This document shows positions 20,002 to 64,000 of a stretch of 64,000 nt of DNA, one piece after another; the first letter of the stretch is position 1, and the number at the start of each line of letters is the position of its first letter. The stretch covers positions 1 to 64,000 of the IMG/VR virus record IMGVR_UViG_3300016476_000256; one strand, 5' to 3'. This DNA is from a virus. The position numbers were made by a program, and so were the translations under genes. Under the pieces are notes generated by a model. That model was given only the letters and a program-made list of their open reading frames with translations, was not told where the DNA came from and ran no database searches.

Positions 20002-20444
20002 TTTCTAGAGAAGAAGTTTTTCTTTGGTGTTTCTACCTTAGTATCTTTAAGTTTCTCAATGATCTTATTAGCTTGTTCTTCAGCAAAGCCAATAACCTCT
20101 TCTTCCTTGTCTTTGATATTCCAATTATTTAATAGAATACTCATGTGCATAGTTTCATGCATAATAGCTGTGGCTTTCTCTGTAGTTGAATACCTCTTGA
20201 AAGTACCCATGTTCAAAAACAAGAAAGGTTTGTATGGATCTTTTGCTGTTAACTTCTTATCAGCGGGATCATAGTTAGTTAAACCATACATATAAACCCC
20301 ATTACCTTTAGTCTTATCTACTTCTTCAGCTTGTGCATCTGCTCTATTCAAGCCATGCATCTCTGGAACTTTGTAGTAATCAAAGATCTCGGTAGCATCA
20401 TTACCAATGAGCAGAATATACTTACCCATGTCAAACTTCTTCAT
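19998..20444 (-). CDS. small HExxH-motif protein (possible metallopeptidase fold)
   Basis: 148 aa with AIMHETMHMS. ATGA overlap with the transferase-like gene. Confidence 0.4.
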   Translation of the reverse strand: MKKFDMGKYILLIGNDATEIFDYYKVPEMHGLNRADAQAEEVDKTKGNGVYMYGLTNYDPADKKLTAKDPYKPFLFLNMGTFKRYSTTEKATAIMHETMHMSILLNNWNIKDKEEEVIGFAEEQANKIIEKLKDTKVETPKKNFFSRK

Positions 20445-20459
20445 ATACTAATATACAAA

Positions 20460-20591
20460 TTATTTTCCAAACTTTGTATTACTATAAGCATCACACTTTT
20501 GGGTAGACTTGCACCCAGTCATAAGATACCCTATAGCCAGACCTACACATAAAGCAAATATATATAGGCAAAATAGTTTACACTTTTCCAT
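20460..20591 (-). CDS. small lipoprotein (43 aa) with CDAY motif
   Basis: Hand-translated as MEKCKLFCLYIFALCVGLAIGYLMTGCKSTQKCDAYSNTKFGK. Signal peptide plus lipobox LMTGC. A paralogous motif occurs at 25106..25249. Confidence 0.5.
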   Translation of the reverse strand: MEKCKLFCLYIFALCVGLAIGYLMTGCKSTQKCDAYSNTKFGK

Positions 20592-20695
20592 GTAGCAAAT
20601 ATAATAAAATAACAAAGGCCCGGGCTTTCAACTCCAGACCTTTGCCATTGTTTATGTTAGCGTGACAAATATACAACTGTATTTGGATATTCCAA

Positions 20696-20783
20696 ACGGG
20701 GGTGAAAATATTTTATATTAGAGGTGGTGTGGGATCATGCTACAGACACCCCCGGGGGGCCAAGCCAAGCGGTGCTACCCCCC
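20696..20783. other. GC-rich twin hairpin in the divergent intergenic region
   Basis: CGGGGGTG (20697-20704) is complementary to CACCCCCG (20747-20754). GGGGGG (20754-20759) is complementary to CCCCCC (20778-20783). CCCCCGGGGGG palindrome and CCAAG x2. Stands out in an AT-rich genome. Confidence 0.5.
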
Positions 20784-20987
20784 ATGAATCTGAGGCAGCA
20801 ATGTCATATTCTAGGTGCAAAACAAAAAAATATTCTACCAGGAAAAAGATGTAACCCACAGATGCATGGCTATCACATGTGCTATGTGTTACATATACTA
20901 TAGTACTATACAGCTTATGTGTTATGTGTAGTGTATGCTTGCTGCTGTGCTACATCATCTAGTATCTAGTACATACTATATATACAG

Positions 20988-21005
20988 GTACTGTGTCATA
21001 CTATT
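20988..21005 (+). promoter_or_regulatory. early promoter-like motif, copy 1 (GTACTGTGTCATACTATT)
   Basis: Core starts 41 nt upstream of the ATG at 21029. Followed by the conserved leader AACCATTAAA..ATTTA. Confidence 0.6.
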
Positions 21006-21028
21006 CATAACCATTAAATACATTTACC

Positions 21029-21217
21029 ATGAAGTTTTACTATGCAACTATTACAGATTACTCAGGAAAAGAAGTACTCACATTGCAATACACTGCTACT
21101 GCTAAACATGCAGCATTCTTAGCAAAGCAATACATAGACTACTGCCCACCTGCTGCTGGCTTTAAGATCCGCATGATGATACTCAAAGCTACTGATATTG
21201 TTAGGCTCCTAAACTAG
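21029..21217 (+). CDS. hypothetical early protein
   Basis: 62-aa ORF behind motif copy 1. Confidence 0.55.
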   Translation: MKFYYATITDYSGKEVLTLQYTATAKHAAFLAKQYIDYCPPAAGFKIRMMILKATDIVRLLN

Positions 21218-21235
21218 GGGCTTAACAATGTTATG

Positions 21236-21253
21236 GTACTGTGCTTTACTACT
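21236..21253 (+). promoter_or_regulatory. early promoter-like motif, copy 2 (GTACTGTGCTTTACTACT)
   Basis: Core starts 40 nt upstream of the ATG at 21276. Confidence 0.55.
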
Positions 21254-21275
21254 AATAACTATTAAATTTATTCTT

Positions 21276-21461
21276 ATGGAAACAACTGTAATTTGTGATT
21301 ATTCTAATTCTCATGATGTCCTAACAAAAGAAGAAATTCTTTTACTTCACATCTTTGAGTATGGTGGACCTGGTATACATGAAGAACCAATTGAGTTTTG
21401 GGAACCAAGGAGTTGGGAAAACCCAAGGTACTATGTTGAAGAAGATGAGCTGCCTTGTTAA
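21276..21461 (+). CDS. hypothetical early protein
   Basis: 61 aa (METTVICDYSNSHD...). Start moved from 21228, because the longer ORF would include the promoter motif and leader. Confidence 0.5.
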   Translation: METTVICDYSNSHDVLTKEEILLLHIFEYGGPGIHEEPIEFWEPRSWENPRYYVEEDELPC

Positions 21462-21476
21462 GGTGGCTCTTGTTTA
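21447..21476 (+). terminator. hairpin terminator candidate
   Basis: GAGCUGCC/GGUGGCUC stem (8 bp including 2 G-U pairs), then TTGTTTAT. Overlaps the stop codon. Confidence 0.4.
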
Positions 21477-21481
21477 TACAG

Positions 21482-21499
21482 GTACTGTGTTATACTACT
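21482..21499 (+). promoter_or_regulatory. early promoter-like motif, copy 3 (GTACTGTGTTATACTACT)
   Basis: Core starts 41 nt upstream of the ATG at 21523. Confidence 0.6.
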
Positions 21500-21522
21500 A
21501 ATAACCATTTAAATTATTTATC

Positions 21523-21672
21523 ATGAAAAATTTTAAGCACTATGCACTTGCTGTTGTATCTATGGGTTGTATAACAGGTTTACTTATTTCTATGGGATCT
21601 CAGATCTTATTAGCTATGGGAGTTATGTCATTATTTTGGGCGGGAATGTTTGCACCAATGTTAGGGGATTAA
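21523..21672 (+). CDS. small membrane protein (49 aa)
   Basis: Hand-translated as MKNFKHYALAVVSMGCITGLLISMGSQILLAMGVMSLFWAGMFAPMLGD. Not in the track because it is under 60 aa. Confidence 0.5.
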   Translation: MKNFKHYALAVVSMGCITGLLISMGSQILLAMGVMSLFWAGMFAPMLGD

Positions 21673-21686
21673 GTTCCCCTTTTGTT
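21663..21686 (+). terminator. intrinsic terminator
   Basis: AGGGGA/TCCCCT stem, then TTTGTT. Confidence 0.55.
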
Positions 21687-21689
21687 ATT

Positions 21690-21707
21690 GTACTGTGTTA
21701 TACTATT
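21690..21707 (+). promoter_or_regulatory. early promoter-like motif, copy 4 (GTACTGTGTTATACTATT)
   Basis: Core starts 42 nt upstream of the ATG at 21732. Confidence 0.6.
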
Positions 21708-21731
21708 CTTAAACCATTAAAACTATTTACT

Positions 21732-21956
21732 ATGGATTATTTAAAACACGCTGCGTTTATTTGTATTAGCTTTGAAGAACAATCTGTTTATCCACCTTAT
21801 GGAATAAATGACTGTAATGGAAAGTTAGAGTGTACAGACCCTAATAAATACATTCAAAGAATTGCAAAAGAAATACAAGATGCACATGAGCAAGGTTTTG
21901 AGAAACTAATTATCAAGTGGAACACTGTTAGGGGTCTACATGTAATAGGGGAGTAA
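21732..21956 (+). CDS. hypothetical early protein
   Basis: 74 aa (MDYLKHAAFICISFEEQ...). Start moved from 21567 for the same reason as above. Confidence 0.55.
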   Translation: MDYLKHAAFICISFEEQSVYPPYGINDCNGKLECTDPNKYIQRIAKEIQDAHEQGFEKLIIKWNTVRGLHVIGE

Positions 21957-21967
21957 TCCCCTTTTTT
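21947..21967 (+). terminator. intrinsic terminator
   Basis: AGGGGA-GTAA-TCCCCT (6-bp stem, GNRA-type loop), then TTTTTT. Confidence 0.65.
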
Positions 21968-21975
21968 AAATACAG

Positions 21976-21993
21976 GTACTGTGTCTTACTATT
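21976..21993 (+). promoter_or_regulatory. early promoter-like motif, copy 5 (GTACTGTGTCTTACTATT)
   Basis: Core starts 42 nt upstream of the ATG at 22018. Confidence 0.6.
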
Positions 21994-22017
21994 ATTGAAC
22001 CATTAAAAGTATTTATT

Positions 22018-22179
22018 ATGTTAGTAGAAATGATTATTGCACAAATCAGAGCAGAACTTATTAAAGCAAAACAAAAACCGGATACCAAGTATCTTAACTC
22101 ATTAAAGCAGTTAAAGAGAAAGGACTTGTATGTTTTGCTAGATTCCTATAAACAGGAGAACAAGCTTATGGTTGATTAA
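22018..22179 (+). CDS. hypothetical early protein (53 aa)
   Basis: Hand-translated as MLVEMIIAQIRAELIKAKQKPDTKYLNSLKQLKRKDLYVLLDSYKQENKLMVD. Confidence 0.5.
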   Translation: MLVEMIIAQIRAELIKAKQKPDTKYLNSLKQLKRKDLYVLLDSYKQENKLMVD

Positions 22180-22200
22180 GGGGGAAACCCCTTTTTTCTT
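22178..22200 (+). terminator. intrinsic terminator
   Basis: AAGGGG-GAAA-CCCCTT hairpin, then TTTTTCTT. Confidence 0.65.
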
Positions 22201-22209
22201 TTAATACAT

Positions 22210-22227
22210 GTACTGTGTCTTACTAAT
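22210..22227 (+). promoter_or_regulatory. early promoter-like motif, copy 6 (GTACTGTGTCTTACTAAT)
   Basis: Core starts 33 nt upstream of the ATG at 22243 (shorter leader). Confidence 0.55.
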
Positions 22228-22242
22228 CTTAAAATTAAAACT

Positions 22243-22425
22243 ATGATTGCAAAACTTATTTTCACTTGGTACCTAATTACAGGTACAGTTCAACCTATTG
22301 ACAATGTTGATGGAAGAACAATCTATGCTATGCCTGATTCTAATATAGAGTATGCTTATGAAGCAGAACTTATAGAGTATATAGAGACAGGCACATTTGA
22401 GTACAATGAAGACTTGGAGGATTAA
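22243..22425 (+). CDS. hypothetical early protein
   Basis: 60-aa ORF behind motif copy 6. Confidence 0.55.
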   Translation: MIAKLIFTWYLITGTVQPIDNVDGRTIYAMPDSNIEYAYEAELIEYIETGTFEYNEDLED

Positions 22426-22438
22426 TTCCTCTGAGTCT

Positions 22439-22456
22439 GTACTGTGTCTTACTACT
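22439..22456 (+). promoter_or_regulatory. early promoter-like motif, copy 7 (GTACTGTGTCTTACTACT)
   Basis: Core starts 42 nt upstream of the ATG at 22481. Confidence 0.6.
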
Positions 22457-22480
22457 GTTAAATAATTAAACCTAAATATT

Positions 22481-22630
22481 ATGGAAGAACAAATATGTAC
22501 ATATTGTGGAGTAGGAGAATTAGAAACCTACTATGATGACTGGACTGATAGTTACTTTACAGAGCAAGTCTGCCAAGGTTGTTTAGCAGAGGACTATTAT
22601 GAAAGCTTAAATGAAAGTAAAGGGGAGTAA
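22481..22630 (+). CDS. small CxxC..CxxC protein (49 aa)
   Basis: Hand-translated as MEEQICTYCGVGELETYYDDWTDSYFTEQVCQGCLAEDYYESLNESKGE. Two CxxC pairs suggest a zinc ribbon. Confidence 0.5.
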   Translation: MEEQICTYCGVGELETYYDDWTDSYFTEQVCQGCLAEDYYESLNESKGE

Positions 22631-22648
22631 TATCCCCTTTTTCTTTTT
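22621..22648 (+). terminator. intrinsic terminator
   Basis: AGGGGA-GTAATA-TCCCCT hairpin, then TTTTCTTTTT. Confidence 0.65.
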
Positions 22649-22741
22649 ATCCACACGGTGGAGCAAGTAGACTTTAGTGCTGATAATCAGGTAGTTAGAA
22701 AATGTAATGTTTTACCCAAAATACCTCCACACTAGTCCACC
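22647..22741. promoter_or_regulatory. DnaA-box-like cluster
   Basis: Perfect TTATCCACA at 22647-22655, plus ACCTCCACA (22723-22731) and TAGTCCACC (22733-22741), in a ~140-nt non-coding gap. Confidence 0.3.
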
Positions 22742-22770
22742 ACACTTAAGAGGCTTTGCCGTCTTTTTTT

Positions 22771-22788
22771 GTACTGTGTTCTACTACT
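22771..22788 (+). promoter_or_regulatory. early promoter-like motif, copy 8 (GTACTGTGTTCTACTACT)
   Basis: Core starts 57 nt upstream of the ATG at 22828. Its flanks are similar to those of copy 9. Confidence 0.55.
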
Positions 22789-22827
22789 ATTGTTGTTTTA
22801 TTTATTAACCCATTAAAATTTATTAAA

Positions 22828-23115
22828 ATGGAAAAAATTGTAAGTGGTATTTTGGTTTCTTGTTCTGACAATTCTAAACCTAATGTTAACGGTACAATGT
22901 ACCATAACTGTACTGTTGAGCACAACGGGGAACAGTACAGTGCTGTTATGTATGCTACTGTGTATGACCGTGGCATTGCTGTTGGTAGCACAGTTAACTT
23001 CAGTGTTAAAGTTACCAATCCTGAAACAGGTGATGTTATATTATCTGTGTTAGGTACAGGTGCTAAACGCGCTACTGCAGGTGCATTTGGCATTGAAATT
23101 CCTGCTACTGTATAG
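22828..23115 (+). CDS. hypothetical early protein
   Basis: 95 aa (MEKIVSGILVSCSDNSKPNVNG...). Start moved from 22756. Confidence 0.6.
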   Translation: MEKIVSGILVSCSDNSKPNVNGTMYHNCTVEHNGEQYSAVMYATVYDRGIAVGSTVNFSVKVTNPETGDVILSVLGTGAKRATAGAFGIEIPATV

Positions 23116-23128
23116 TAGGGTTCAACAA

Positions 23129-23165
23129 ACAGGGTATGTCTACAAAGGCATACTCTGTTTTTTTG
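23129..23165 (+). terminator. strong intrinsic terminator
   Basis: 12-bp stem 23129-23140/23147-23158 (2 G-U pairs), loop TACAAA, then a T-run at 23158-23165. Confidence 0.75.
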
Positions 23166-23194
23166 TTTAATACAAGAGCTTCGCGTCTTTCTTG

Positions 23195-23212
23195 GTACTG
23201 TGTTTTACTCCT
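23195..23212 (+). promoter_or_regulatory. early promoter-like motif, copy 9 (GTACTGTGTTTTACTCCT), no ORF behind it
   Basis: Same core and flanks as copy 8. The next ~170 nt contain no ORF, but they do contain the direct repeat GTTAAC(A)CCGGTC twice (23223-23235 and 23244-23255). Confidence 0.45.
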
Positions 23213-23364
23213 CTTGTTGTTAGTTAACACCGGTCTACAACCTGTTAACCCGGTCAACACTTGTAAAACTTATGAATTAAAATAAATTCCGAAATAAGTT
23301 TGTTTAAATAAGTGTATGTAACTAACTGATTATTAACCCCACTTATTATCCTTACTTAATTATC

Positions 23365-23382
23365 CTACTGTATTTTACTATA
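23365..23382 (+). promoter_or_regulatory. early promoter-like motif, copy 10, variant (CTACTGTATTTTACTATA)
   Basis: Degenerate copy, 72 nt upstream of the ATG at 23437. Confidence 0.4.
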
Positions 23383-23436
23383 CTAGTATAGTATAGTTAA
23401 GGATTTTATATAGCTAACCCTTTAATCTTATTACTT

Positions 23437-23664
23437 ATGCATAGAGCTACTTACTTCCTATATGGAGTACTATTCAGTCTTATACTATATACTGTGTTTT
23501 ACTCTATAAGAAAGACAGATAGAAAGACTCCGGTCAAAGGTATAGACCGAGAATATTATTTAGAAGTTTCCCAAGATAGTATTTGGGTTGAATCTAGATA
23601 TGGAAAAATTTACAGTGGTAAGTATTCAGACTTAGACAGTCTTATTACCATTGATAACTTGTAA
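23437..23664 (+). CDS. small membrane protein
   Basis: 75 aa with an N-terminal TM helix (YFLYGVLFSLILYTVFYSI). Confidence 0.5.
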   Translation: MHRATYFLYGVLFSLILYTVFYSIRKTDRKTPVKGIDREYYLEVSQDSIWVESRYGKIYSGKYSDLDSLITIDNL

Positions 23665-24412
23665 TTAATTGCAATATAGTTTCTAACAGCCAGTAATGGT
23701 CATCCGAAGGTAGAGCTATAAGTTGAGAAGGATATACTTATCTAGGTATTGCAATTATTTATCCTGAGCATGATATAAAACTGCTCTTATTATTCTAAAA
23801 TTCTAGTTATAATTAACTGGTAATATGACAGCTTAGACAACTGTATTCCTATACTAGATAGGTTCTTATTGCTCACGCTAGTGACTTGCGTGTAATAAAT
23901 TAAGACTGTCTTATGATATATATAGAGTTACCTGGAATATGGTTGCACGGCTTGTTGGTACATCGTGTGTAAAAGAAAACAACCTTCTATGGGATGAAGT
24001 CCTACACCTAAGCAAGTGTTTAAACTGCTTTTATTTACTCTCATCCAAGCAGGATGTATATTCTATGATTGTTTTCCAAAGAATAACATTGGTTATATAT
24101 CTACCCATGACTTATGATGTCCGGAGGGTGTGTATATCAAGGGTTGCAACCTTGTGAGAGTATTATTAATGCACCATTCCTGATTCCCAAGGTCAGGCAG
24201 TTGTAGAAAATATAGCGGGTCTGAATTAACAGACTACATTGCTGAAAGCTGAGAGGTTACTAAAGTACACAGTGTAAAATAAAACACCTCGCTATTAGTA
24301 TATTACAAGTTACTTAATCCTTAAAAGGAAGATAATTGGAATATACACTACAACTGAGTGCAGAGGGGTATTTAACTTATAGAAACTTAATTATTAACTC
24401 AAAACTAAACTT
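23665..24412 (+). other. region without a credible ORF, locally GC-enriched; candidate structured RNA or origin
   Basis: About 750 nt with only one atypical 72-aa ORF. Several local hairpins (24042-24056, 24179-24197, 24219-24234). Long-range complementarities: 23666-23676/23747-23757 (11 bp) and 24198-24206/24348-24356 (9 bp). Bipartite motif TTATGAT-N23-GGTTGCA occurs twice, 201 nt apart. Confidence 0.3.
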
Positions 24413-24715
24413 ATGAAAAAGGTATACATTGTTTTTTTAACATACATTCATGATGTAGATGATTACGATTGTCAACCTAAACCTAGCATAGTAGGTGTTT
24501 ATAGCACCGAAGAACTTGCCAAGCAAAAAATTGCTGATATAGTAAGCTCTACTAAAGAAGAAAAAATTCTTAGTTATGATGAGTATATATCAGAACTTGG
24601 TGATGGTTACGGTGAGATAGACTATAGTAACTACTTGTATGATATGAGAGATACTAGTAGTAGTAGTTATCACTATGAAGAATGGTCAGTACTAGAAAAG
24701 TGGGATGAAAAATAG
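24413..24715 (+). CDS. hypothetical acidic protein
   Basis: 100-aa ORF. First gene after the ORF-free region. Confidence 0.6.
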   Translation: MKKVYIVFLTYIHDVDDYDCQPKPSIVGVYSTEELAKQKIADIVSSTKEEKILSYDEYISELGDGYGEIDYSNYLYDMRDTSSSSYHYEEWSVLEKWDEK

Positions 24716-24761
24716 TAATCCCACTAATTATCTTGATTATTAACTATTTAAAATTACACTT

Positions 24762-25100
24762 ATGAATAAGTCTATCCCCTTTGGTTACCACTTTATAGGT
24801 AGCCACACAATTGTTAAACTTAATATGAACCTTACAGCTACTGATGCAGATGAAATTAGAAATCTATTTGACTTTAATGTTACACATGTAGGAAGATATG
24901 AATCTATGCTATGCAGAATAGAAGGAGTTGTTGGTATAAATGGTTTAGGAAGTGAAAAATTTGCACAATGGTTTAATAGACTTGAAGTGTATAAGATCAA
25001 TGCCAAGATGGAAAAACTGGCAAACAGAAAAGCAACATTGCTAGATGTAGCAATAGGTGCTGAAAATTTATTAGCTGATTTGAATGATTTACCCTTTTAA
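24762..25100 (+). CDS. hypothetical protein
   Basis: 112-aa ORF. Confidence 0.6.
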   Translation: MNKSIPFGYHFIGSHTIVKLNMNLTATDADEIRNLFDFNVTHVGRYESMLCRIEGVVGINGLGSEKFAQWFNRLEVYKINAKMEKLANRKATLLDVAIGAENLLADLNDLPF

Positions 25101-25105
25101 AATTT

Positions 25106-25249
25106 ATGATTATGAAAACAATTGGAATTGTATTATTATGGTTTGTATTTATTGGTGCTATAGCAACTTTAGTTAGTTGTGGTACCACTCATCACTGTGA
25201 TGCTTATGGTCAAACAGAGCAAGTACAGAATAAAACTGTAAGCAAATGA
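25106..25249 (+). CDS. small lipoprotein (47 aa) with CDAY motif
   Basis: Hand-translated as MIMKTIGIVLLWFVFIGAIATLVSCGTTHHCDAYGQTEQVQNKTVSK. Lipobox LVSC. Its stop overlaps the next ATG. Confidence 0.5.
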   Translation: MIMKTIGIVLLWFVFIGAIATLVSCGTTHHCDAYGQTEQVQNKTVSK

Positions 25250-25494
25250 TTTACAGAAAGCTTAGAAAACTGGAACAGCATAAGAGGGATTTACAGTCCC
25301 TCATTATTGCTGCTTATCAGTCAGGGGCAGATCCTGAAGTAGTTATGATTAGAGTGAGTGACCTACAATGGGACATGGATATACTAGACAGAGAAATAGA
25401 AGAAGAGAAAATCTTCTTAGGTTTCAAATGGGGTTTAGCTATATTCTTGGCCAGTATGGTAGGACTCATTATTGTTACACTAATTTATAAATAA
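25246..25494 (+). CDS. tail-anchored membrane protein
   Basis: 82 aa with a C-terminal TM helix (LAIFLASMVGLIIVTLI). Confidence 0.55.
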   Translation: MIYRKLRKLEQHKRDLQSLIIAAYQSGADPEVVMIRVSDLQWDMDILDREIEEEKIFLGFKWGLAIFLASMVGLIIVTLIYK

Positions 25495-25498
25495 GATT

Positions 25499-25786: not shown

Positions 25787-25850
25787 TTATATTTGCGTGC
25801 ACCTATAACCGCAATAAACAGATGAAAGGTGTTATAGTCTGTTTAATATT

Positions 25851-25924: not shown

Positions 25925-25942
25925 CTATTATTAACTAAACCT

Positions 25943-26722: not shown

Positions 26723-27196
26723 ATGAATTCAACAGTTAAAATTGTAGCTGATGCTACTACAGGTGCAGTAGTTAGAGTTTCTGAAACAAATCCAGAGTTT
26801 GCTTCTGTAAGATTAGAACAAGTACGTACAGTTATTGGAAGCAATAACTTTGTTGAGCGTAAAACAGTTTCTACTTTATTACAAGGTGCTACTGAAGATT
26901 TAACCGCAATGGGCTTTTATGCAGGACAAGAACTACCAGGAACTATTGTTGTAGAAGAGTCTTTGACTCCATTTAACAAGAAGAATCCTGAGCGTGATCT
27001 TAAAATTGCTGGAGAAACAGGTATTGTATGCCGTGTAGGTGACCAACCAATTTACCGCAGATCTATTTATTCTACAGCATCTAATGCACAAGACACACTT
27101 ATTAAGCATGACAATGTAGAGCAATTACGTTCTGCATATGCACAAGCAAATACTTCTGCTATCAGAAATGCAGCAGGTCAAGACTTTAATATCTAA
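26723..27196 (+). CDS. hypothetical protein
   Basis: 157-aa ORF with its own upstream gap, followed by a strong terminator. No motif recognised. Confidence 0.65.
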   Translation: MNSTVKIVADATTGAVVRVSETNPEFASVRLEQVRTVIGSNNFVERKTVSTLLQGATEDLTAMGFYAGQELPGTIVVEESLTPFNKKNPERDLKIAGETGIVCRVGDQPIYRRSIYSTASNAQDTLIKHDNVEQLRSAYAQANTSAIRNAAGQDFNI

Positions 27197-55119: not shown

Positions 55120-55137
55120 TCTTCCCCTTATTTTTTT
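55102..55137. terminator. bidirectional terminator between convergent blocks
   Basis: GGGGAAG/CTTCCCC stem (55107-55113/55121-55127), flanked by AAAAA on the 5' side and TTATTTTTTT on the 3' side. Confidence 0.7.
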
Positions 55138-58100
55138 ACTGTAAATTTTCAAATGCTTGGTATTTCTTAATAGCCCAAATACCACCTTCTGTTAATTCAT
55201 TTTTACCTTTAAGTCCATAAAGTGACCCTAAGTGATTCCAAAGTTTATATTCTCCTTCTTTTTGCCATCTATAAGGTCCTATATCTTGACTATATCTAGC
55301 TTCTTTTTCATCACCTTCTGCAATATTATAAAGATCCTGACCTATTTTAGTATACAACACAACTGTATTATCTAATGCTATTGTTGTTGTTTTAAAATAC
55401 TTTGTTCCTTGCTCTGGAAGATAAATAGGTACAAAAGATTGGTTTTCCATTTTAGTCATTATCAAAAGATAAAGCAAATGGTTTTCAAGTTGACCTTGTG
55501 TTGTTGTACCTCTTGCTTTTAATTTTTTCCACTTATCTTCATCATCTGGGTCATATCCAAAATACCATGACCCAATAATCATTGCTAATAAGAAGTATCC
55601 AACATTTTCAACAATTACTTTTTTGGCTGCAGCTTTTTCATCCTCAGTCATTATTGCAGTATCTTTACCTACTGATCTAATAAGTCTCAAGGCATTCTGT
55701 AGAGTATTCATGTAATAACCTTTATCTAAAGTATTAGTATCCCAGTTATATACATATCCACCTCTATTACCTTTATCAGTATCTATTTGAAACTTATCAA
55801 GGAACATTCCTGTAGCAAATCTTTTGTAGAAAGTAAATGCGCGGTATCCTAAATATTTTTCAGCTTGTGGTGTATCAAATACATCCATTAAACCTGTTGT
55901 CTTTTTCTGTGCAGATTGTAGTAAGAATTTCATATTTAAGAATTCTTCCATGTTACCTACAGTGATTTTATCTCCGGGTTCAAGTTTTGATATATCAGTT
56001 ATACCACTTCTTCTTTTAACTTGTTCAGGTGTTATATTATATCTTTTAGCAATACTTTCAAAAGTATCTCCACGTTTATATTCATGATCTACTTTTTTAT
56101 AGTCATATGCTGGATCAATACCTTCTTTTAGTTTTAAAATACCTTTATCATCTGTTTCCCATGCATCAGCATAAGCTATATCCTCAGAAGATCCTGCTTG
56201 AGGAATGTATTTATTATACATCATACCCCAGAACATTTCTAAAGCTGCCTCAAGTTCCATTGTTCTTCTAAAGTCATATGCATAAGTTAAATCTGCTAAG
56301 TCTTTTAGTTTTGATCTAGAAGATGATTTACCAAAGTTTTTATCAAACATTGCTGTAGGATCCATTCTTTCTACTAACTGTATGTCAGCTGATTTAATTC
56401 CTTGCTCATAAATATCTTTGAAGACCCAGTACATTGCAGATTGTTTAGCTTTTGCATATCCTTTAGCTAATGACATTGGTGTAACATTTTTACCACCTGC
56501 TGCGTATATAGCATTTTGATAAAGCATCCCCCAGCGGTTTTTAATAGCTGACTGTGGATCAAATGCAATAAATGCTCTTGATGATCTTCTAAATAAACCT
56601 TGAACAATTTTAGTTATCCATGCATTTTCTTCATCAAATGTTCCAGTAGTTTTACCATAGAAGATTTTTCTGACCTGATGTTTTACTGCACCTAGTCTTC
56701 TATTATCCTCTTTACTGATAAATTCTTTTTTACCTGTTCTTTGATATTCTTGTTTATCAATTTTTGATAAATCTTTAATACCATTCTGATCAAGAACACT
56801 TTCTAAAGCTTCAGCAATTGGTTCATTTTCTAATAATACTTTTTGTTCTTCTAGAGAGAGTAGATAGTCATACATTCCTCTTAGTACATCTTTAGAGACG
56901 CGCTTTTGATCTAAATTATATAAACCTCTAATTCTAACTTTATTAACTGGTCTTCCATCTAAGTCTGTTGTAACTAAATTAAAATTAGCATCATGATTAA
57001 ATCCAAACTCTGAATCATCCACATCTCTACCAAACCAGGTTTTCCATAAACCTTTAAATCCACCAACTTTTTCTAATAAGTTTTCTTTAGCTTCTCCAGA
57101 TGCAACATATTCTAAATTACCTCTTTTTCTAAACCTTGGCATTTCTAAGTACAATCTACTTGAAACAGGTTTATCTTTTTGAATTTGTAGCATAGATTCA
57201 GTAATTGCATTTAATAACTGAAACTCTGGACCACCAGCATTTTGCATTTCTAAATATTCTTCATTTTGATATTTTTTATCAAATGCAGAATTAGGATCAC
57301 CAATTTTATACTCCCTAGGTAAATAGTTACCTTTATTATCTACAATGGTTCCAACATAATTATCCCAACTTTCACCTCTTGGTATTGTTAAGAATTCACT
57401 TTTTATTCTACTCTTAGTATATTTACCAGCAGGTCTTCCTATAATTTTTCTTTCTGTCTTAGTTAGGGGGTCAATAATTTCTGTTGTAACATAATGATCA
57501 GTATTATTTGGAACCTTCATTGTCCAAGCAGCAATTCTAAAGTTTTTAATTACATCCCTATTTAAGTCTATATCAAATACTTCTTTTTGATAATGATTCC
57601 TACCATACCATTTTGCAAACTCTGGATTTTCTAAAGCTTTAACTAAATTTTCTCCATTTATCCACTTATCTGCATTGTCTAAATTTATTTCAGGAAGTTC
57701 CATATCTCTTATAGCATAGTTAAATGCTTCAAGATAATAGTCTGTTGGAATTTTACTTTCAAGTTCTCTTAGTTCTGCAAATCTTGCTTTAAGTGCTGCT
57801 AATTCTGCAGTAGTTAATCCCATTTCATTTTTAATAGAAAGTATTTCTGCATAATCTTTTCTTTCTTCTGGAGTTAATTTAGTTCCAGCAGCAGCTTTTG
57901 CAATGTATGAATCATACCTTTTAGTTTGATCTTTTGTCAATCCAGTCTTTCTATCAAACTGTTCTTCTAATGCTACTATTTCATCTTCTATTTTCTTTAA
58001 AAGATTAATTTGTTCTGGAGAAAGGTTTAACCCGTTAGGTTGTCCATTAGCATCAGATGTAGAAGTAGATAAATTAAATCTAGTTTTATAAAGTTCAGCT

Positions 58101-61100
58101 AAGTCTAATGCTATTTGAGATTTTTTATTAGCAACCTTTGAAGTTATTTTTCTGATTTCTTCTAATATTCTTTTTCTTTCAGCATAAAACTTAGATGTAT
58201 AGGCTATTTTAAAATTAGACTTTAAGAATTTACTAATTTGTTTTTGATATTCATTTTGAGTTTCCCCTTCTTTAGGTTCAGCTTCCGGGTCTATACCTTT
58301 AGCTATCAATCTATTATGAAAATTATCTAGATCTTTTTGTACTCTATCTACATCTACATCATAGTCATACATGTTTCTGGATAACTCTCTGTGTTTTTTT
58401 CTTAGTAAAACTCTTTGAAGTTCTTCACCTTCTTTTGGCTCACCTTGTAGATTATATATATCAAATAATCTGTTATACTCTAATCTTGCTTGTTCTTCTG
58501 AATCATTAAAGTCATATAAGTCTTCTAGGTCTAAGAAGTTAACATTTTTTAAAGTATTCATTTTAGAAAGCTGATTCTGTCTTTCTACATAAGAATCAAA
58601 AGCAACTTTAGGAGATACTGTAATTTCTTTTCCTGTAAATGGATCAGTTACTACAGCCCCTGTGTTCCAGATTTTTTGAATATCATAGAAAGCTTTTGTA
58701 TATCTTCTATGCATGTATTTTTCTTCAAAGTCTTGAATAGCCTGATAAGCATCTTTCATACCTTGCTTATCATTTCTATTTCTAGCCTCTTTAAAGTTAT
58801 TTTGAAGTTTAGCTAAATCATATCTATAGTTTTTAAACTTGTTCTTAAAAGTCCAAACTTCTTTTTCTTGAAAGTCTCCATTATTGTCTACATAACCAAC
58901 CTTATCCAAAAACAATAGCATGTCACCAAGCTGATTTGTTTTAAACGGTTGATAACCAACAGCATTTAATAGTGGTAATAACTTGTATGTTATTTCATCT
59001 GCCTGATCTTGGGCAGCTTGTTGAGCTTCAAATATTTTAGTTTTTACAAATCTTGTAAATGAACCAGCAATAGGATCATCCATATTTGCATAAGGAGTGA
59101 TAAATGCAGTATAGAATGATATGTCTCCTCTTTCTCCTCTTAAGTATTCTTCAATTTGTTCTTTACCTAAGCGTTTGAACATGTATTCATTTACTGCTTT
59201 AACAACCAACTTAGCTCTTCTAGGAGTAATATTTTTTAAACCTATATTCTCTAATGTATATGTTTCTCTACCTTTAGTATTAACTACATTTTCTATAAAG
59301 GTTTCTATATCTTTTTCAGAATATCCTTCTGCTTTTAATATTATACCAACTCTTTCCTTCAAGTTTTTTTCAATAGAACCCTGCATTAACTCTGTTTGAT
59401 CTGCAAAGAAGTCAGAGATAAACTTAAATTCTATTTCCGCTATTTTTTTATTAGCTTTTTCAACTGAGTTTTGTATTGAGTTAAGTGTCTTATAAAACAA
59501 ACTTTCTTTATCAAGCGGTAAATCTTTTAACTTATCAAGTAAGGCCTGTTGATTTTTTAAAGATGTTTTATAATAAATAACTCTTGAAATATTTTCATTA
59601 GTTTGACTTTCTACTTTTGTTAAATCATCAAGAATTTTTTCAATACTTTCAACAAAGGTTTCTATTTCATTTAATGAGTTTGTAAGTGCTAATGCTCTAA
59701 GTCTTGTTTCAGCTTCTATATCTTCTACAGCTCTAATAACATTTTCTGGATCTATATCTTCTGCTTTTACATTGACTGTTTGATACTTAGAAAGCTCTTC
59801 ACGGATGTAATTTAAAATCTTTGTTCCACCACTTTTAACCAATAGATCTTTTACTTTAAATGGAACTTGCTTCAAACTATTAAGCTGACGCATGTTATTA
59901 TCATAGATTCTATTGATCTCTTCTTGTAATCTTTCAACTGGAATACCTTTAAGCTCATCAATCCTTCTAGCTACTTCACTCTCTAGTTTTTTAAACTCAG
60001 GATTATTAACATCAAAAATTTCAAAAGATTCTATCTCAAACTCCTCATTAGCAAGCATGTTAGCTAACTGATCTAAAGTAGTACTTTGACTTAGTTTATT
60101 TAAATTAATCTTTGAAGCTACTTGTGGACTAAATGCTTTTCTAATTACTTTCTTAATGGCAAACATTAATTTGTCTAAGAACTTTTTAAATTGAGAAGAT
60201 GGAGCTGTACCTTTTCTTTCAATAGAGGTAACTAATGCTTCTCTAATAAAAGCTTTTGACCCTTTCTGAAGATTAGGGTATACTCTTTCTATATATGCTA
60301 TAACATCCAGACCTTCTGGTGTCATGCTTAATTCAGCATATAGATTATCAAATAGCTGAGGGTTCTCTTGTTCAATACCTTTTATTAAGGGATGTGCAAA
60401 CTCATGTAATACATTATCTACTGATAAATTACCTTCTACAAAGTATACTTTATTACCAAAGAAGAATGCTGGTTCTCCGGCATATTCTGTTGGAGTATTT
60501 TTTAATAATATTTCAGCAGCTTCAGGAGTTACTAACTCCCATTCTACATTTAAAGAATCCGATAATTTATTTGCAAGTGTAGTAGCAATTTCTATTGCTC
60601 TTTCACTTTCAGCATTATATGTATCTGCAGAAGCTTCTTCAGCTGTCATTCTAGTTATAATATCTGCTTGTCTTCTAAACTCTGCTTCTGTAATATTTGG
60701 ATCTACACCCAATGTTTCTTCAGAGTTTCTTCCAAACAGGTAGTCATCACTATAATCTACACCTGCTCTTTTAGCATCTTCCTCTTGTATCTTTCTTGCC
60801 TCCTCTTCATATAATTGTTCTTCAGGAGTTTTTTCTCTTACCTCTGGTTTTATATAAGCTCCAGTCTTAATTATATTTTCTAAATCTGACACAGGTTTAT
60901 TTGATTGAGTAGCATCTACAATTCTAGACTGTGCTCTTTCTATTTTACCTTCAATGTCTAATTTACCACGAACTTTTCTAAGACCCCATGTATGTAAATC
61001 TGCTTGACCAATTCTTTCTACATTATATGTCATATATACTGTAGAGATATTATTATTTCTGTTGTAATTATTTTTTCTAGAAACAGCTTGAAATAATTTT

Positions 61101-61333
61101 ATTTTTTGACTTTCACTAATTTCTTTTGAGAAACTTTTACCAATTTCTTCTTTGACTTTAGATATTGGTATTAGACCTAATGCTTCTTTAACATTTTTAT
61201 TTTTAATAAAATCATTATAGGCAGGTGTTTCACTATTAAAAAATTCCTGGATGAGATTAGAGACTTTTGTTTCTCCAAAATCTTTTACCATTTTTTGTAC
61301 ATCAGGATCACCAAAGTTTAAACAGAATGACAT
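55136..61333 (-). CDS. giant virion-associated/ejection-type protein candidate (HExxH motif, LysM domain, C-terminal TM segments)
   Basis: 2065-aa uninterrupted ORF. HEFAH at 60392-60406. LysM-type segment YKRGDTFESIAKRYNITPEQVKRRSGITDISKLEPGDKITVG at 55955-56080. Hydrophobic YFLLAMIIGSWYFGY near the C-terminus. Long coiled K/E-rich middle. Confidence 0.55.
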   Translation of the reverse strand: MSFCLNFGDPDVQKMVKDFGETKVSNLIQEFFNSETPAYNDFIKNKNVKEALGLIPISKVKEEIGKSFSKEISESQKIKLFQAVSRKNNYNRNNNISTVYMTYNVERIGQADLHTWGLRKVRGKLDIEGKIERAQSRIVDATQSNKPVSDLENIIKTGAYIKPEVREKTPEEQLYEEEARKIQEEDAKRAGVDYSDDYLFGRNSEETLGVDPNITEAEFRRQADIITRMTAEEASADTYNAESERAIEIATTLANKLSDSLNVEWELVTPEAAEILLKNTPTEYAGEPAFFFGNKVYFVEGNLSVDNVLHEFAHPLIKGIEQENPQLFDNLYAELSMTPEGLDVIAYIERVYPNLQKGSKAFIREALVTSIERKGTAPSSQFKKFLDKLMFAIKKVIRKAFSPQVASKINLNKLSQSTTLDQLANMLANEEFEIESFEIFDVNNPEFKKLESEVARRIDELKGIPVERLQEEINRIYDNNMRQLNSLKQVPFKVKDLLVKSGGTKILNYIREELSKYQTVNVKAEDIDPENVIRAVEDIEAETRLRALALTNSLNEIETFVESIEKILDDLTKVESQTNENISRVIYYKTSLKNQQALLDKLKDLPLDKESLFYKTLNSIQNSVEKANKKIAEIEFKFISDFFADQTELMQGSIEKNLKERVGIILKAEGYSEKDIETFIENVVNTKGRETYTLENIGLKNITPRRAKLVVKAVNEYMFKRLGKEQIEEYLRGERGDISFYTAFITPYANMDDPIAGSFTRFVKTKIFEAQQAAQDQADEITYKLLPLLNAVGYQPFKTNQLGDMLLFLDKVGYVDNNGDFQEKEVWTFKNKFKNYRYDLAKLQNNFKEARNRNDKQGMKDAYQAIQDFEEKYMHRRYTKAFYDIQKIWNTGAVVTDPFTGKEITVSPKVAFDSYVERQNQLSKMNTLKNVNFLDLEDLYDFNDSEEQARLEYNRLFDIYNLQGEPKEGEELQRVLLRKKHRELSRNMYDYDVDVDRVQKDLDNFHNRLIAKGIDPEAEPKEGETQNEYQKQISKFLKSNFKIAYTSKFYAERKRILEEIRKITSKVANKKSQIALDLAELYKTRFNLSTSTSDANGQPNGLNLSPEQINLLKKIEDEIVALEEQFDRKTGLTKDQTKRYDSYIAKAAAGTKLTPEERKDYAEILSIKNEMGLTTAELAALKARFAELRELESKIPTDYYLEAFNYAIRDMELPEINLDNADKWINGENLVKALENPEFAKWYGRNHYQKEVFDIDLNRDVIKNFRIAAWTMKVPNNTDHYVTTEIIDPLTKTERKIIGRPAGKYTKSRIKSEFLTIPRGESWDNYVGTIVDNKGNYLPREYKIGDPNSAFDKKYQNEEYLEMQNAGGPEFQLLNAITESMLQIQKDKPVSSRLYLEMPRFRKRGNLEYVASGEAKENLLEKVGGFKGLWKTWFGRDVDDSEFGFNHDANFNLVTTDLDGRPVNKVRIRGLYNLDQKRVSKDVLRGMYDYLLSLEEQKVLLENEPIAEALESVLDQNGIKDLSKIDKQEYQRTGKKEFISKEDNRRLGAVKHQVRKIFYGKTTGTFDEENAWITKIVQGLFRRSSRAFIAFDPQSAIKNRWGMLYQNAIYAAGGKNVTPMSLAKGYAKAKQSAMYWVFKDIYEQGIKSADIQLVERMDPTAMFDKNFGKSSSRSKLKDLADLTYAYDFRRTMELEAALEMFWGMMYNKYIPQAGSSEDIAYADAWETDDKGILKLKEGIDPAYDYKKVDHEYKRGDTFESIAKRYNITPEQVKRRSGITDISKLEPGDKITVGNMEEFLNMKFLLQSAQKKTTGLMDVFDTPQAEKYLGYRAFTFYKRFATGMFLDKFQIDTDKGNRGGYVYNWDTNTLDKGYYMNTLQNALRLIRSVGKDTAIMTEDEKAAAKKVIVENVGYFLLAMIIGSWYFGYDPDDEDKWKKLKARGTTTQGQLENHLLYLLIMTKMENQSFVPIYLPEQGTKYFKTTTIALDNTVVLYTKIGQDLYNIAEGDEKEARYSQDIGPYRWQKEGEYKLWNHLGSLYGLKGKNELTEGGIWAIKKYQAFENLQ

Positions 61334-61338
61334 AATCT

Positions 61339-64000
61339 TTATCTTTTACAATTCATATAATAATCTAGAGCATCAAAGATATCTAAATCTGGGTTTTTAG
61401 TTGCTTCATTTGTAAACCAATTTTTAAATTCTGGTTTATTTAGTGTGTTGATTTTTTCTTGCTTTTCCTGTGAGGTTTCTAATTCTATTTCCTGACTTTC
61501 CATTTCTTCATTGTACATGAACTCATTTAAGTTTGTTCTATTTAAGAAACTATCAGTTAATACTTGTAACACCTGCTTATCAGACAATAGATTTAAGATA
61601 AAGTTAGTGAACTTTTTCCACCAATTGTAGGCATCTCCTTTTTGTTTTACAACTTGTTCTCCAATTGCCTGTACTAATGCCTCTTCACTACCAAATCTTT
61701 TAATACCTTCTTGAACAATAGGCGTATTTCTAAACCATGCAATATAGTGGTGAGCATACTCATGTGGTAATGTATCTTGTCTTTGATTTACAGCATCAAT
61801 TAATACTGTCATAGCTTTAATATTAGCTTGACCTATAATTTTATTAGCTTCATTTTTTTGTAATAATACATTTTGTAAATCTCTAGCTTGGTTAATTGTT
61901 ACCTCATTCCAAGTATTACCATACTCATCTGTAAATTTTGTAGGTGTATAGCCTTGTTTTTTAAGAACATTAGCCACTACATTTTCATAGAAGTTGTAAA
62001 TTGGTTTTAAAGCACCAAATCCTTCTGGTCCTTCTACTCTTTCAAGTTCTTGTTTAAGTTGGTTTATTTCTCTCTCTGTAGCTTCTCTTTGAAGTTCTCC
62101 TTTTTTACCTTTATCATATATCTCTTTAGTTATTTCTATAACTGATTCCCCTCCAAATTGACCGGCTTGTAAATCTTCCCAATAATATTTTCCATTTTCT
62201 TCAAAGTAATAGTTAGGAGATAATTCATAGTTATAGTCATCCATTCCTTCTTCAAGCTCTTTAATCCTATCTTCTTTTTGTTTTTTAAACTCCTCTAAAG
62301 TAGTATGACCTTCAACCTTACTAGCTGTATCACCAGAAGGAAACAACACTTTTTCATATCCTTTCTTAGCACTATCTTGTATAATAGATTTAATAAAGAA
62401 GTTTACCCAGTTATTGTCTTTGTTTAGAAGTTGTAGGAATTGATTGCCTTTTTGAGGATCTTCAGTTAATCCTAAAAATTTAGCTGCTTCTTTTCTAGTA
62501 GGAAATGTATCTAATATTCCAATTCTACCATTATGAGCTTCCCATTCTTTACCATTAAATTCAATCCACTCTTCATCTCCACTATAAGAATCTGTACCTA
62601 TTTCACTAATTAAATCCTCTCTATCTCTACCTTTCTGAAATAAATCAGATTGTACTTCTAGTATTCTACGGGTTTTAGTAGGTGTTCCTTTTTGTAAATA
62701 ATTTATATTACCATATTGATTATCATATATAGCATATACATCAGTATCTGTTAAATCATCTCTTTTATGAGTTATACCATCAGAGTCTATACTATACCAG
62801 ATATTATTTCTTTTTTCCCAAATACTCCCATAATTACCTTTAAAAGATAAAGGATATTCTTTAGATGTAATAAATTCATCATCACTTCTAAACCAACCTA
62901 TACCATTCTCTGTAGCAAACTGAGCATGCCCTTTAATATTAGGAACAATACCCGGTGTTGTTACTTCTTGTTCAGTATAGTTAGTACCACCTGGGACTTT
63001 TAGATTAGAATAGTATTGTGTATTTTCTCCTTCTGAACCTACAATAAAAGATTCTCTTTGTTCTAAACCTGAACTTCCCCAACTATCATCTTCAAATCTT
63101 GTACCTGTTATTTTCCATTGTTTATTATCAATAGTAATATAATCTCCAATTTTTTTATTAGGATATTTATCAACCCAAACATTACCAAAAGCATCTTCAA
63201 TTTTATCTTTAGAAGTATTAATCTCAATAGTATAGTTATAAGTAGAAGCAATAGCATATGCAAGTTGAGCATTAAAAGGTATGCCTTCAAAGTATGGCAT
63301 TGTTTCTATTACTTTTTCTATAAGTTCTTTTTGATTTTTAGGTATCTGAAGTTCTGTTAAGATTTTATCCAGTGTCCATTTATTTTTAATACCCTTAGCA
63401 AATACTTGATCAGCTTTTGGTGTAAGTAAAATATCAACTGTTTTAATCCTATAGTTTACTTGATTATTGTACTGCTCTTGATTAAGTACATTATTACCTT
63501 CTTCCCAAACTGGAGTATTGCTAATGTTTAATTTAATCTCAGGATATAGTTTTTCAAGTTTGTCTTGTATTTTTTTAGCAAGTTCTTTATCAAACTTCTG
63601 ATTTGGATTTATACTGCGTTGATTAAATAAATCTAATTGCTCACCTGGTTGTGGACCTTGTTTAGGTTGAGTAGTTCTAGATTTACTCCATGTTCCTATT
63701 TTTACACCATCTATTGTAATCTCAGAATAGTTATAACCTTTGGCTTCAAGATTTTGGAACAATCTTTTTTCTCCGGTGTTGTAAGTATTTTTAGAATCAA
63801 AAGTATAAGCTTTATTATCTACGAGAATAGTTGCTCCAGCTTCTATGGCTTTAATTGCTTCTCTGATTGTCTTATCCTGTTCTCTTTTAACAATAGCTAC
63901 ATCACCTCTTAGTCCAGGAACAGATACAAAGATTACATCAGTACCACTGTATTTACCAGTATTTGCCAAAATGCCAACTTGCTCTCTATATATTTGAGTA
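61339..64000 (-). CDS. second large protein with HExxH motif (5' end probably outside the window)
   Basis: The track gives 876 aa from a TTG at 63969, but the frame stays open to position 64000. HEYAH at 61750-61764. 5-nt gap to the 2065-aa ORF. Confidence 0.55.
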   Translation of the reverse strand, partial: TQIYREQVGILANTGKYSGTDVIFVSVPGLRGDVAIVKREQDKTIREAIKAIEAGATILVDNKAYTFDSKNTYNTGEKRLFQNLEAKGYNYSEITIDGVKIGTWSKSRTTQPKQGPQPGEQLDLFNQRSINPNQKFDKELAKKIQDKLEKLYPEIKLNISNTPVWEEGNNVLNQEQYNNQVNYRIKTVDILLTPKADQVFAKGIKNKWTLDKILTELQIPKNQKELIEKVIETMPYFEGIPFNAQLAYAIASTYNYTIEINTSKDKIEDAFGNVWVDKYPNKKIGDYITIDNKQWKITGTRFEDDSWGSSGLEQRESFIVGSEGENTQYYSNLKVPGGTNYTEQEVTTPGIVPNIKGHAQFATENGIGWFRSDDEFITSKEYPLSFKGNYGSIWEKRNNIWYSIDSDGITHKRDDLTDTDVYAIYDNQYGNINYLQKGTPTKTRRILEVQSDLFQKGRDREDLISEIGTDSYSGDEEWIEFNGKEWEAHNGRIGILDTFPTRKEAAKFLGLTEDPQKGNQFLQLLNKDNNWVNFFIKSIIQDSAKKGYEKVLFPSGDTASKVEGHTTLEEFKKQKEDRIKELEEGMDDYNYELSPNYYFEENGKYYWEDLQAGQFGGESVIEITKEIYDKGKKGELQREATEREINQLKQELERVEGPEGFGALKPIYNFYENVVANVLKKQGYTPTKFTDEYGNTWNEVTINQARDLQNVLLQKNEANKIIGQANIKAMTVLIDAVNQRQDTLPHEYAHHYIAWFRNTPIVQEGIKRFGSEEALVQAIGEQVVKQKGDAYNWWKKFTNFILNLLSDKQVLQVLTDSFLNRTNLNEFMYNEEMESQEIELETSQEKQEKINTLNKPEFKNWFTNEATKNPDLDIFDALDYYMNCKR

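Follow-up and report, generated by a model that had tools for sequence, protein, structure and literature searches.

A nine-copy array of candidate early promoters whose genome-specific block follows a predicted virion RNA polymerase module in freshwater crAss-like phages

The DNA described here, called the window throughout, is a stretch of 64,000 nucleotides (nt) from a virus (IMG/VR record IMGVR_UViG_3300016476_000256, positions 1 to 64,000) and forms part of a circularly assembled contig of ~113.5 kb (ENA ERZ27292626 k141_373763). It carries an array of nine copies of a bipartite 18-nt motif, in which the block GTACTGTGT is followed after two variable positions by TACTAyT. These motifs are probably early promoters served by transcription machinery of the phage's own, for which the giant crAss-type virion RNA polymerase (RNAP) encoded in the same genome is the most likely candidate, either alone or together with a co-inherited protein of 2065 amino acids (aa). 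Judged from its portal, which matches that of PhicrAss001 (PDB 7qog, E 1.5e-23), and from a Pfam Crass_capsid match of the capsid gene located just past the window start, the genome is that of a freshwater crAss-like phage. Its nearest annotated phages are distant, namely Leptolyngbya phage Lbo-JY46 (33% identity in the portal) followed by epsilon-crAss and Cellulophaga crAss-like phages. The first 50 kb of Lbo-JY46, the closest cultured relative, contain no array comparable to that of the window, and neither the array (nucleotide BLAST) nor the 2065-aa protein (protein BLAST) matched any GenBank phage.

Scanning the window with the pattern GTACTGTGTNNTACTANT returned nine copies with at most one mismatch, all on the plus strand between 20988 and 23212, so that the array spans only 2.2 kb. 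When three mismatches were allowed, two further plus-strand sites appeared at 23365 and 23489, and the remaining three matches outside 20988-23506 correspond to chance level (~4 expected). The motif was found neither on the minus strand nor in the 10 kb past either window end. The 8-mer TACTGTGT occurs 13 times in the window against 3.1 expected, a count reached in none of 100 shuffles. The first-pass annotation had recorded one additional exact 8-mer at about 35163; it is indeed present at 35158-35165 but not single, as others lie outside the motif copies at 22956 (plus strand), 42350 and 46777 (both minus strand). That annotation had also counted ten clustered copies. The cluster and its common orientation are real, but the tenth copy, at 23365-23382, is a look-alike. 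In the related locus L378, every one of the nine true copies, including copy 9 just upstream, carries TCACCTTG, yet the two look-alike sites (23365, 23489) remain TACTGTAT and TACTGTGT. We therefore define the array as having nine members, and the same observation indicates that the block swap is targeted to functional sites.

20988..21005, plus strand: motif copy 1, GTACTGTGTCATACTATT, first unit of the array, without a same-strand gene upstream
21236..21253, plus strand: motif copy 2, GTACTGTGCTTTACTACT, 1 mismatch
21482..21499, plus strand: motif copy 3
21690..21707, plus strand: motif copy 4
21976..21993, plus strand: motif copy 5, in a unit orthologous to L142 unit 4 and L156 unit 6
22210..22227, plus strand: motif copy 6, short leader, 33 nt from motif start to ATG
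22439..22456, plus strand: motif copy 7
22771..22788, plus strand: motif copy 8, long leader, 57 nt from motif start to ATG
23195..23212, plus strand: motif copy 9, not followed by an open reading frame (ORF), conserved non-coding sequence downstream, co-swaps in L384, L378 and L394
23365..23382, plus strand: look-alike CTACTGTATTTTACTATA, counted as tenth copy by the first-pass annotation, unchanged in L378 and hence a non-member
23489..23506, plus strand: look-alike inside a conserved 75-aa ORF (23437-23664), unchanged in L378 and hence a non-member

The array begins at a strand switch. The first 20.6 kb of the window hold leftward genes (portal, terminase and others), and rightward genes, among them those for a ParB-like protein, a helicase and a family-B DNA polymerase, occupy 21-54.5 kb. 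Each unit follows the same order, in which a hairpin with T-run typical of a terminator is succeeded by GTACTGTGT-nn-TACTAyT, an A/T-rich leader, an ATG and an ORF of 49-95 aa. A conserved leader behind the core, already noticed in the first-pass annotation, was borne out with the consensus AAyCATTAAA..TATTTAyyATG. In six of the eight ORF-bearing units the motif starts 40-42 nt before the ATG, not in seven copies as had been annotated; this distance amounts to 33 and 57 nt in the other two, and the ninth copy lacks an ORF. Only the 9-nt block and TACTA are invariant across the copies, and the neighbouring bases vary. Directly before the block lies the T-run of the preceding terminator, and no other conserved upstream element is present. 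Thirteen terminator-like sites were counted against 2.4 expected. Six of them close units 2, 3, 4, 5, 7 and 8 just before the next motif copy; the hairpins that close units 1 and 6 lack a clear T-run. None of the eight small ORFs has a Pfam match, and the region 20600-24500 has no match in Rfam.

21029-21217, plus strand: first small monocistronic ORF
21276-21461, plus strand: second small monocistronic ORF
21523-21672, plus strand: third small monocistronic ORF
21732-21956, plus strand: fourth small monocistronic ORF
22018-22179, plus strand: fifth small monocistronic ORF
22243-22425, plus strand: sixth small monocistronic ORF
22481-22630, plus strand: seventh small monocistronic ORF
22828-23115, plus strand: eighth small monocistronic ORF
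21447-21469, plus strand: terminator-like hairpin with T-run, unit 2
21663-21680, plus strand: terminator-like hairpin with T-run, unit 3
21947-21962, plus strand: terminator-like hairpin with T-run, unit 4
22178-22194, plus strand: terminator-like hairpin with T-run, unit 5
22619-22640, plus strand: terminator-like hairpin with T-run, unit 7
23127-23160, plus strand: terminator-like hairpin with T-run, unit 8

Comparison with related phages revealed which part of the unit is free to change. IMG/VR was scanned for exact matches to GTACTGTGTNNTACTA and to a pair of blocks spaced 225-255 nt apart, which gave single chance hits only, among the matches listed. Relatives were therefore gathered through flanking proteins, namely the product of a 222-aa gene to one side of the array (80 loci) and the helicase to the other (80 loci), and in addition through a conserved DNA anchor (119 loci). 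None of the relatives collected contains the exact motif of the window. Nearly all of them, more than 150 related contigs, nevertheless keep the unit architecture of terminator, block, leader and ATG, with at least 15 genome-specific blocks, each of them uniform within its genome. Examples are TAACTGTGT, TCACCTTGT, TACTGTTCT, AACTTCTTT, TACTTCTT, ACATCTTAT, TACAGCTTT, ACAGCTCAT, AAATGTATT, ATCTTTAAT, CAACTTTTAT, TGCAACTTT, CCGCTTTTA and AxCCCTTnAnTT. The orthologues of copy 1 read TCACCTTGT in L142 and L378, TAACTGTGT in L384 and TACTGTTCT in L156. In such orthologous units the terminator, TACTAyT, the leader and the ORF are kept and the block alone differs; L378, for instance, differs from the window by four fixed substitutions in the block of every copy. 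The content of small-ORF cassettes is shuffled between relatives at the terminator-promoter junctions. Many contigs of the IMG/VR relatives (L119-L198) end within ~1 kb of the array, which fits assembly breaks in a hypervariable region that differs among many strains.

The class to which a block belongs follows the clade of the RNAP and not the genes adjacent to the array. This comparison rests on 14 genomes with an RNAP core, in 12 of which, including that of the window, the block could be assigned from an array on the same contig. Two independent helicase lineages show the effect. Within the first (85-94% mutual helicase identity), the RNAP cores of the window and of 44615_294 are 90% identical and their blocks are GTACTGTGT and TAACTGTGT, whereas the RNAP cores of 43772_1004 and 27797_1 are 40-41% identical to that of the window and accompany the unrelated block AxCCCTTnAnTT. 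The second lineage (94-97%) splits in the same way. All six genomes with the second class of block (class II) fall into one RNAP clade of 51-77% mutual identity that is at most 50% identical to the seven genomes assigned other block types, and one more genome, whose array sequence is not included, also belongs to this clade.

The exchange takes place on a backbone of ~90% identity, as reflected by a 148-aa protein (88-93%), the helicase (85-94%) and the family-B DNA polymerase (91-92%). On this background the giant ORF of the RNAP and the 2065-aa ORF are either 91-92% identical, in genomes with an xxACTGTGT..TACTA block, or 30-35% identical, in genomes with the AxCCCTTnAnTT block. Between 27797_1 and the window, identity falls from 91% in the DNA polymerase and 77% in the next gene to 30% in the 2065-aa protein and 35% in the giant ORF, which marks a sharp module boundary. 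Between 44615_294 and the window, the DNA polymerase, the 2065-aa protein and the giant ORF are all 91-92% identical, with 81% in the intervening 397-aa gene. Across all three genomes, the genes next to the array share 85-95% identity. The block class is thus linked to a gene more than 30 kb away.

The first-pass annotation stated that no RNA polymerase gene is recognisable in the window. Taken literally this is true, but it is misleading, as the last 876 aa of a 3841-aa virion RNAP are encoded at 61339-64000 on the minus strand. In the full contig, the 3841-aa ORF carries the catalytic GADFDVD motif (GADFDVDKL) ~4.9 kb past the window end and holds VRIPVQGLNS...AKSGADFDVDKL; the TTG given as its start at 63969 merely results from truncation of the ORF where the window stops. 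Relatives conserve VRIPVQGLNS...IVVPxEIVAKSGGDFDIDKL, and the conserved VRIPVQGLNS...DFDIDKL reads like the double-psi barrel signature of a beta-prime subunit. With HMMER, no RNAP was found for the giant ORF in PDB, Pfam or PHROGs. The fold comparison did find one: an AlphaFold (AF2) model of the homologue P0021 (41% identical; 56-sequence alignment; predicted local distance difference test, pLDDT, 85; predicted template modelling score, pTM, 0.69) had a single significant PDB match, 6VR4 (6vr4_A), the virion RNAP gp66 of phage phi14:2 (E 1.2e-10, probability 1.00, 1026 columns). By this model, a two-barrel RNAP of the gp66 type, with a DFDxD motif, is encoded in the genome.

61339..64000, minus strand: C-terminal 876 codons of the 3841-aa crAss-type virion RNA polymerase, the rest lying beyond the window end
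55136..61333, minus strand: 2065-aa protein with LysM domain, adjoining the RNAP gene and swapped together with it
26723..27196, plus strand: 157-aa ORF, secondary candidate for a partner factor, its sequence tracking the broad block/RNAP class

A DYDVD sequence at residue 990 of the 2065-aa protein was considered as a catalytic motif and rejected in favour of the giant ORF upstream, as it is not conserved in ~30%-identical relatives. Identity in the 157-aa ORF is 85-90% among genomes with blocks of the AC..TACT type and 45-62% in others, a pattern that its neighbour genes do not share. As the specificity factor itself it was discarded, because it tracks the broad class and not the sub-blocks (85-90% identity across three sub-blocks), but the protein may be a polymerase partner or switch factor. 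The C-terminal part of the giant RNAP (61339-63969) is a mosaic in which conserved end segments surround differing inserted domains (relatives L202, P0002, P0009 and P0026), including NADAR/YbiA-like, 2OG-Fe(II) oxygenase, circularly permuted YpsA SLOG and DUF7831 domains. These inserts resemble exchangeable effector cargo attached to the presumably injected polymerase.

Several known promoter classes were compared with the array. In agreement with the first-pass annotation, its core is unlike the Bacteroidota sigma-A promoter. The array contains no match to TTTG-N17-21-TAnnTTTG, the only such site in the window being located at the divergent junction and facing the leftward genes, and TAnnTTTG does not occur between any motif copy and its ATG.

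20666..20696, minus strand: host-type promoter-like site TTTG-N19-TATATTTG, facing the leftward genes at the divergent junction, in contrast to the array motif

Sites of the sigma-70 type (TTGACA/TATAAT, 16-18-nt spacer) numbered 24 against 26.2 expected in 20400-26000, and none coincides with a motif copy. A hairpin promoter of the N4 type was rejected, since the nine copies fold no better than shuffles (z -0.05 to +0.73); the N4-like arrangement ACAG-GTA-CTGT, with a 4-bp ACAG/CTGT stem, occurs in three motif copies only. The block is asymmetric, without dyad, and there is no conserved hairpin. Regarding a T7-like RNAP, no Pfam RNA_pol match was found in window ORFs of at least 600 aa or in the genes called in the 20 kb around the window, a scan covering all but ~30 kb of the genome. 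The class-II motif CTAACCCTTnAnTT was dismissed as a signal of the window, where it is not enriched and has a single good copy at 23414. This single copy of the other class's promoter core, CTAACCCTTTAATC at 23414-23427 on the plus strand, is separated by 10 nt from the downstream ATG of the conserved 75-aa ORF.

Elsewhere in the window TATATTTG is enriched (17 copies against 8.3 expected), mostly on coding strands. Three copies at the divergent junction (20555-20673, minus strand) lie just upstream of genes, as do a plus-strand copy at 25788 just before tRNA-Arg (25851-25925) and another at 44059, 23 nt ahead of the ATG at 44089. Such recurrent TATATTTG sites are candidate host-type promoters of non-early genes. 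A conserved DNA element of the clade sits on a 117.9-kb scaffold binned with a metagenome-assembled genome (MAG) of a Chitinophagaceae from Lake Mendota. A Bacteroidota host, with host-type promoters for the other genes, is plausible because of this scaffold, the TATATTTG enrichment and the TTTG-N19-TATATTTG site at 20666-20696; the host assumed in the first-pass annotation is hinted at by the scaffold and the enrichment rather than established.

In the mechanism that we favour, the upstream block of 8-9 nt (GTACTGTGT in this genome) would be the specificity element, and TACTAyT, which is common to the related phages, would probably lie at or near the site of melting and transcription start. 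A start within or just after the motif would give a leader of ~20-25 nt, whose A/T-rich part (AAyCATTAAA..TATTTA) would serve translation initiation. Each transcript would yield a protein of 49-95 aa and stop at the hairpin with T-run just ahead of the next promoter, and the ninth promoter would produce a non-coding RNA. The suggestion of the first-pass annotation that a phage-specific polymerase or factor reads a non-host promoter is favoured, in view of the absence of a sigma-A site from the array and of a block class that follows the RNAP module.

We regard it as unlikely that host RNAP is redirected by a sigma-like or activator protein of the phage, delivered with the virion or made very early, which reads the block and uses TACTAyT as a -10/-7-like element. 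TACTAT does resemble a weak -10 hexamer, the units are closed by intrinsic terminators of the host type, and candidate factors tracking the block class exist in the 157-aa ORF (26723-27196) and the 2065-aa protein. However, the array lacks any match to TTTG/TAnnTTTG or TTGACA/TATAAT, and the block abuts the TACTA element instead of being placed at -33/-35. The 157-aa protein remains 85-90% identical across three sub-blocks, and a factor made from the array could not start the array's own transcription. The operator suggested as an alternative in the first-pass annotation is improbable in our estimation. Here the block would bind a phage regulator, e.g. an early shut-off repressor, and overlap promoters recognised through TACTAyT and the leader only. 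A genome-specific site at every early unit beside a shared element is reminiscent of the immunity operators of heteroimmune phages, but nothing else upstream is conserved that could act as promoter, only the T-run of the preceding terminator being found there. The asymmetry of the block, which has no dyad, and a block class that follows the RNAP module instead of a small DNA-binding gene near the array leave this explanation less well supported than that of a promoter.

A function of the block in RNA or in termination has still less in its favour and is quite improbable. It could be a processing site in a polycistronic early transcript produced by read-through, comparable to the RNase III sites of T7, or a polymerase-specific terminator, comparable to the 26-nt motif of P23-45. 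A hairpin always precedes the block and the virion RNAP of P23-45 does have a conserved terminator motif, yet the first copy has no upstream gene, the block keeps its distance to the downstream ATG also where the upstream gene is 79-140 nt away, and conserved sequence directly follows the ninth copy. Very improbable, finally, is the explanation that the repeats are mainly recombination joints for cassette shuffling, kept uniform within a genome by gene conversion. Cassette content does differ among relatives at exactly these junctions, many assemblies break at the array, and the PeSL elements of T4-type phages work in this manner (PMC2839356, PMC4122927). Conversion would, however, homogenise the flanks, whereas only the 9-nt block and TACTA are invariant, and it leaves the linkage to a gene more than 30 kb away unexplained. 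Moreover, a role as recombination joint is compatible with promoter function and not an alternative to it. All four explanations fit the spacing, the absence of another upstream element and the long-range linkage less well than early promoters read by phage-specific machinery.

Several points weigh against this assignment or limit its reach. We infer the promoter function of the nine motifs from sequence. The covariation covers broad classes and two independent lineage contrasts, because the contigs with sub-blocks (GTACTGTG, TCACCTTG, TACTGTTC) do not extend far enough to contain the RNAP. In one pair of genomes whose ACATCTT..TACTT blocks look alike, the RNAP cores share just 44% identity. 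Since the 2065-aa protein and, more loosely, the 157-aa protein also track the block class, the covariation does not single out the RNAP as the reader of the block, although we presume this role for it rather than for a linked protein. The fold match to 6VR4 was obtained with the homologue P0021 and not with the window genome's own protein. Packaging and injection of the RNAP are presumed from its homology to gp66 and from the position of its gene among virion genes. In phi14:2, no common motif was detected upstream of the early transcripts made by gp66 (10.1101/2020.03.07.982082). This differs from the strong 18-nt consensus in the window and implies that such a consensus is not a known property of this polymerase family.

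In other respects phi14:2 resembles the phage described here. Its gp66 transcribes the early genes in vivo, and activity in vitro was shown on single-stranded and denatured DNA (10.1101/2020.03.07.982082). Both phages have a crass-type virion and a giant DFDxD protein, 6VR4 being the only significant match of the homologue model, and both place small early genes at the start of the rightward module and have host-type promoters for other genes. The abundant early non-coding RNAs reported for phi14:2 have a possible counterpart in the ninth promoter, which precedes non-coding sequence. Unlike the 2180-aa gp66, the polymerase of the window's phage has 3841 aa with variable C-terminal domains, and the sequence similarity between the two is undetectable by HMMER.

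The promoters of the T7 group (T7, T3, SP6 and K11) are multi-copy, genome-specific sequences of ~18-23 bp that combine a shared downstream part with a short upstream specificity block evolving with the polymerase. The array shares with them an initiation-proximal part common to relatives and an upstream block that differs between them. This resemblance is purely architectural, as single-subunit and two-barrel RNAPs are unrelated families. In addition, the T7-group enzyme is made after infection, whereas that of the window's phage is presumably injected, and the promoters described here are confined to one early array.

Thermus phage P23-45 has a two-barrel virion RNAP fused to the tape measure protein and a conserved pre-early motif that recurs at ~14 start sites gathered towards one end of the genome, and the motif was found only in relatives carrying that polymerase (PMC10770324). 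The combination of a two-barrel virion RNAP with a strongly conserved motif that covaries with it recurs here. The lineage and the motif are different, and swapping of genome-specific specificity was not reported there. The PeSL elements are repeats of a terminator stem-loop and an early promoter around small ORFs of unknown function in a hyperplastic region (PMC2839356, PMC4122927). As in the array, cassettes are gained, lost and replaced at terminator-promoter joints, but the promoters are host sigma-70 early promoters, are not genome-specific and have no link to a phage polymerase. Coliphage N4 injects a giant RNAP that uses a few conserved early sites, its promoters being DNA hairpins with a 5-7-bp stem and a 3-nt loop (PMC4496689). 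Transcription of early genes from conserved sites by an injected giant RNAP is also predicted for the phage of the window, whose polymerase belongs to another family and whose motif has no conserved hairpin.

Three further elements lie close to the array. A bounded element at 24034-24163 on the plus strand has an invariant 5′ end, ACTCTCATCCAAGCAGG, an invariant 3′ end, CAAGGRTTGCAACCTTGTGAGAGTA, complementary ends (ACTCTCA/TGAGAGT) and a hypervariable interior of 50-200 nt. It is present in 140 loci of relatives, in more than 119 IMG/VR contigs and in three MAG records. The fold computed for one subfamily supports a closing helix and a 3′ hairpin as well as an internal stem that has one compensatory pair; the copy in the window has a z of -2.2, and an Rfam match is lacking. 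A structured early RNA whose payload varies is one possible identity, a small mobile element another. At ~23530-23755 on the plus strand, the 3′ two-thirds of the 75-aa ORF (23437-23664) and ~90 nt past its stop are ~100% identical at the nucleotide level in four genomes. As the flanks are only 80-90% identical, this suggests that more than the encoded protein is under constraint. The divergent junction just upstream of the array contains at 20700-20800 a G+C-rich tract with C/G runs (ACACCCCCGGGGGGCC ... CTACCCCCCATG), which coincides with the minimum of the cumulative GC skew, and palindromes similar to GGGGGTACCCCC are located at the equivalent place in relatives. Possible roles of this tract are those of an origin, of a packaging site or of a genome end.

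No early promoter of crAss-like phages was described in the literature searched, and the locus presented here offers a concrete, testable candidate for the signal by which a crAss-type virion RNAP finds the early genes. We tentatively propose, at somewhat less than even confidence, that crAss-like phages of this freshwater clade use a promoter-polymerase password, in which an injected RNAP would read a block of 8-9 nt that exists in at least 15 mutually distinct versions and is exchanged together with the polymerase module by recombination among genomes that are nearly identical elsewhere. The co-swapping of two loci, the array and the polymerase module, on a backbone of ~90% identity points to selection for matched pairs and possibly to transcriptional insulation between competing phages. 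With diversified blocks exchanged along with the polymerase, co-occurring phages would have orthogonal early transcription. The arrays also mark hypervariable sets of small early genes, and it is in such genes that functions in host takeover and anti-defence usually reside. Since the bipartite 18-nt signal comes with natural variants of both specificity block and polymerase, promoter-swap experiments and searches for covarying residues become possible. If true, the proposed password would be the first promoter code for a crAss-type two-barrel virion polymerase and would provide a natural set of orthogonal promoter/polymerase pairs.

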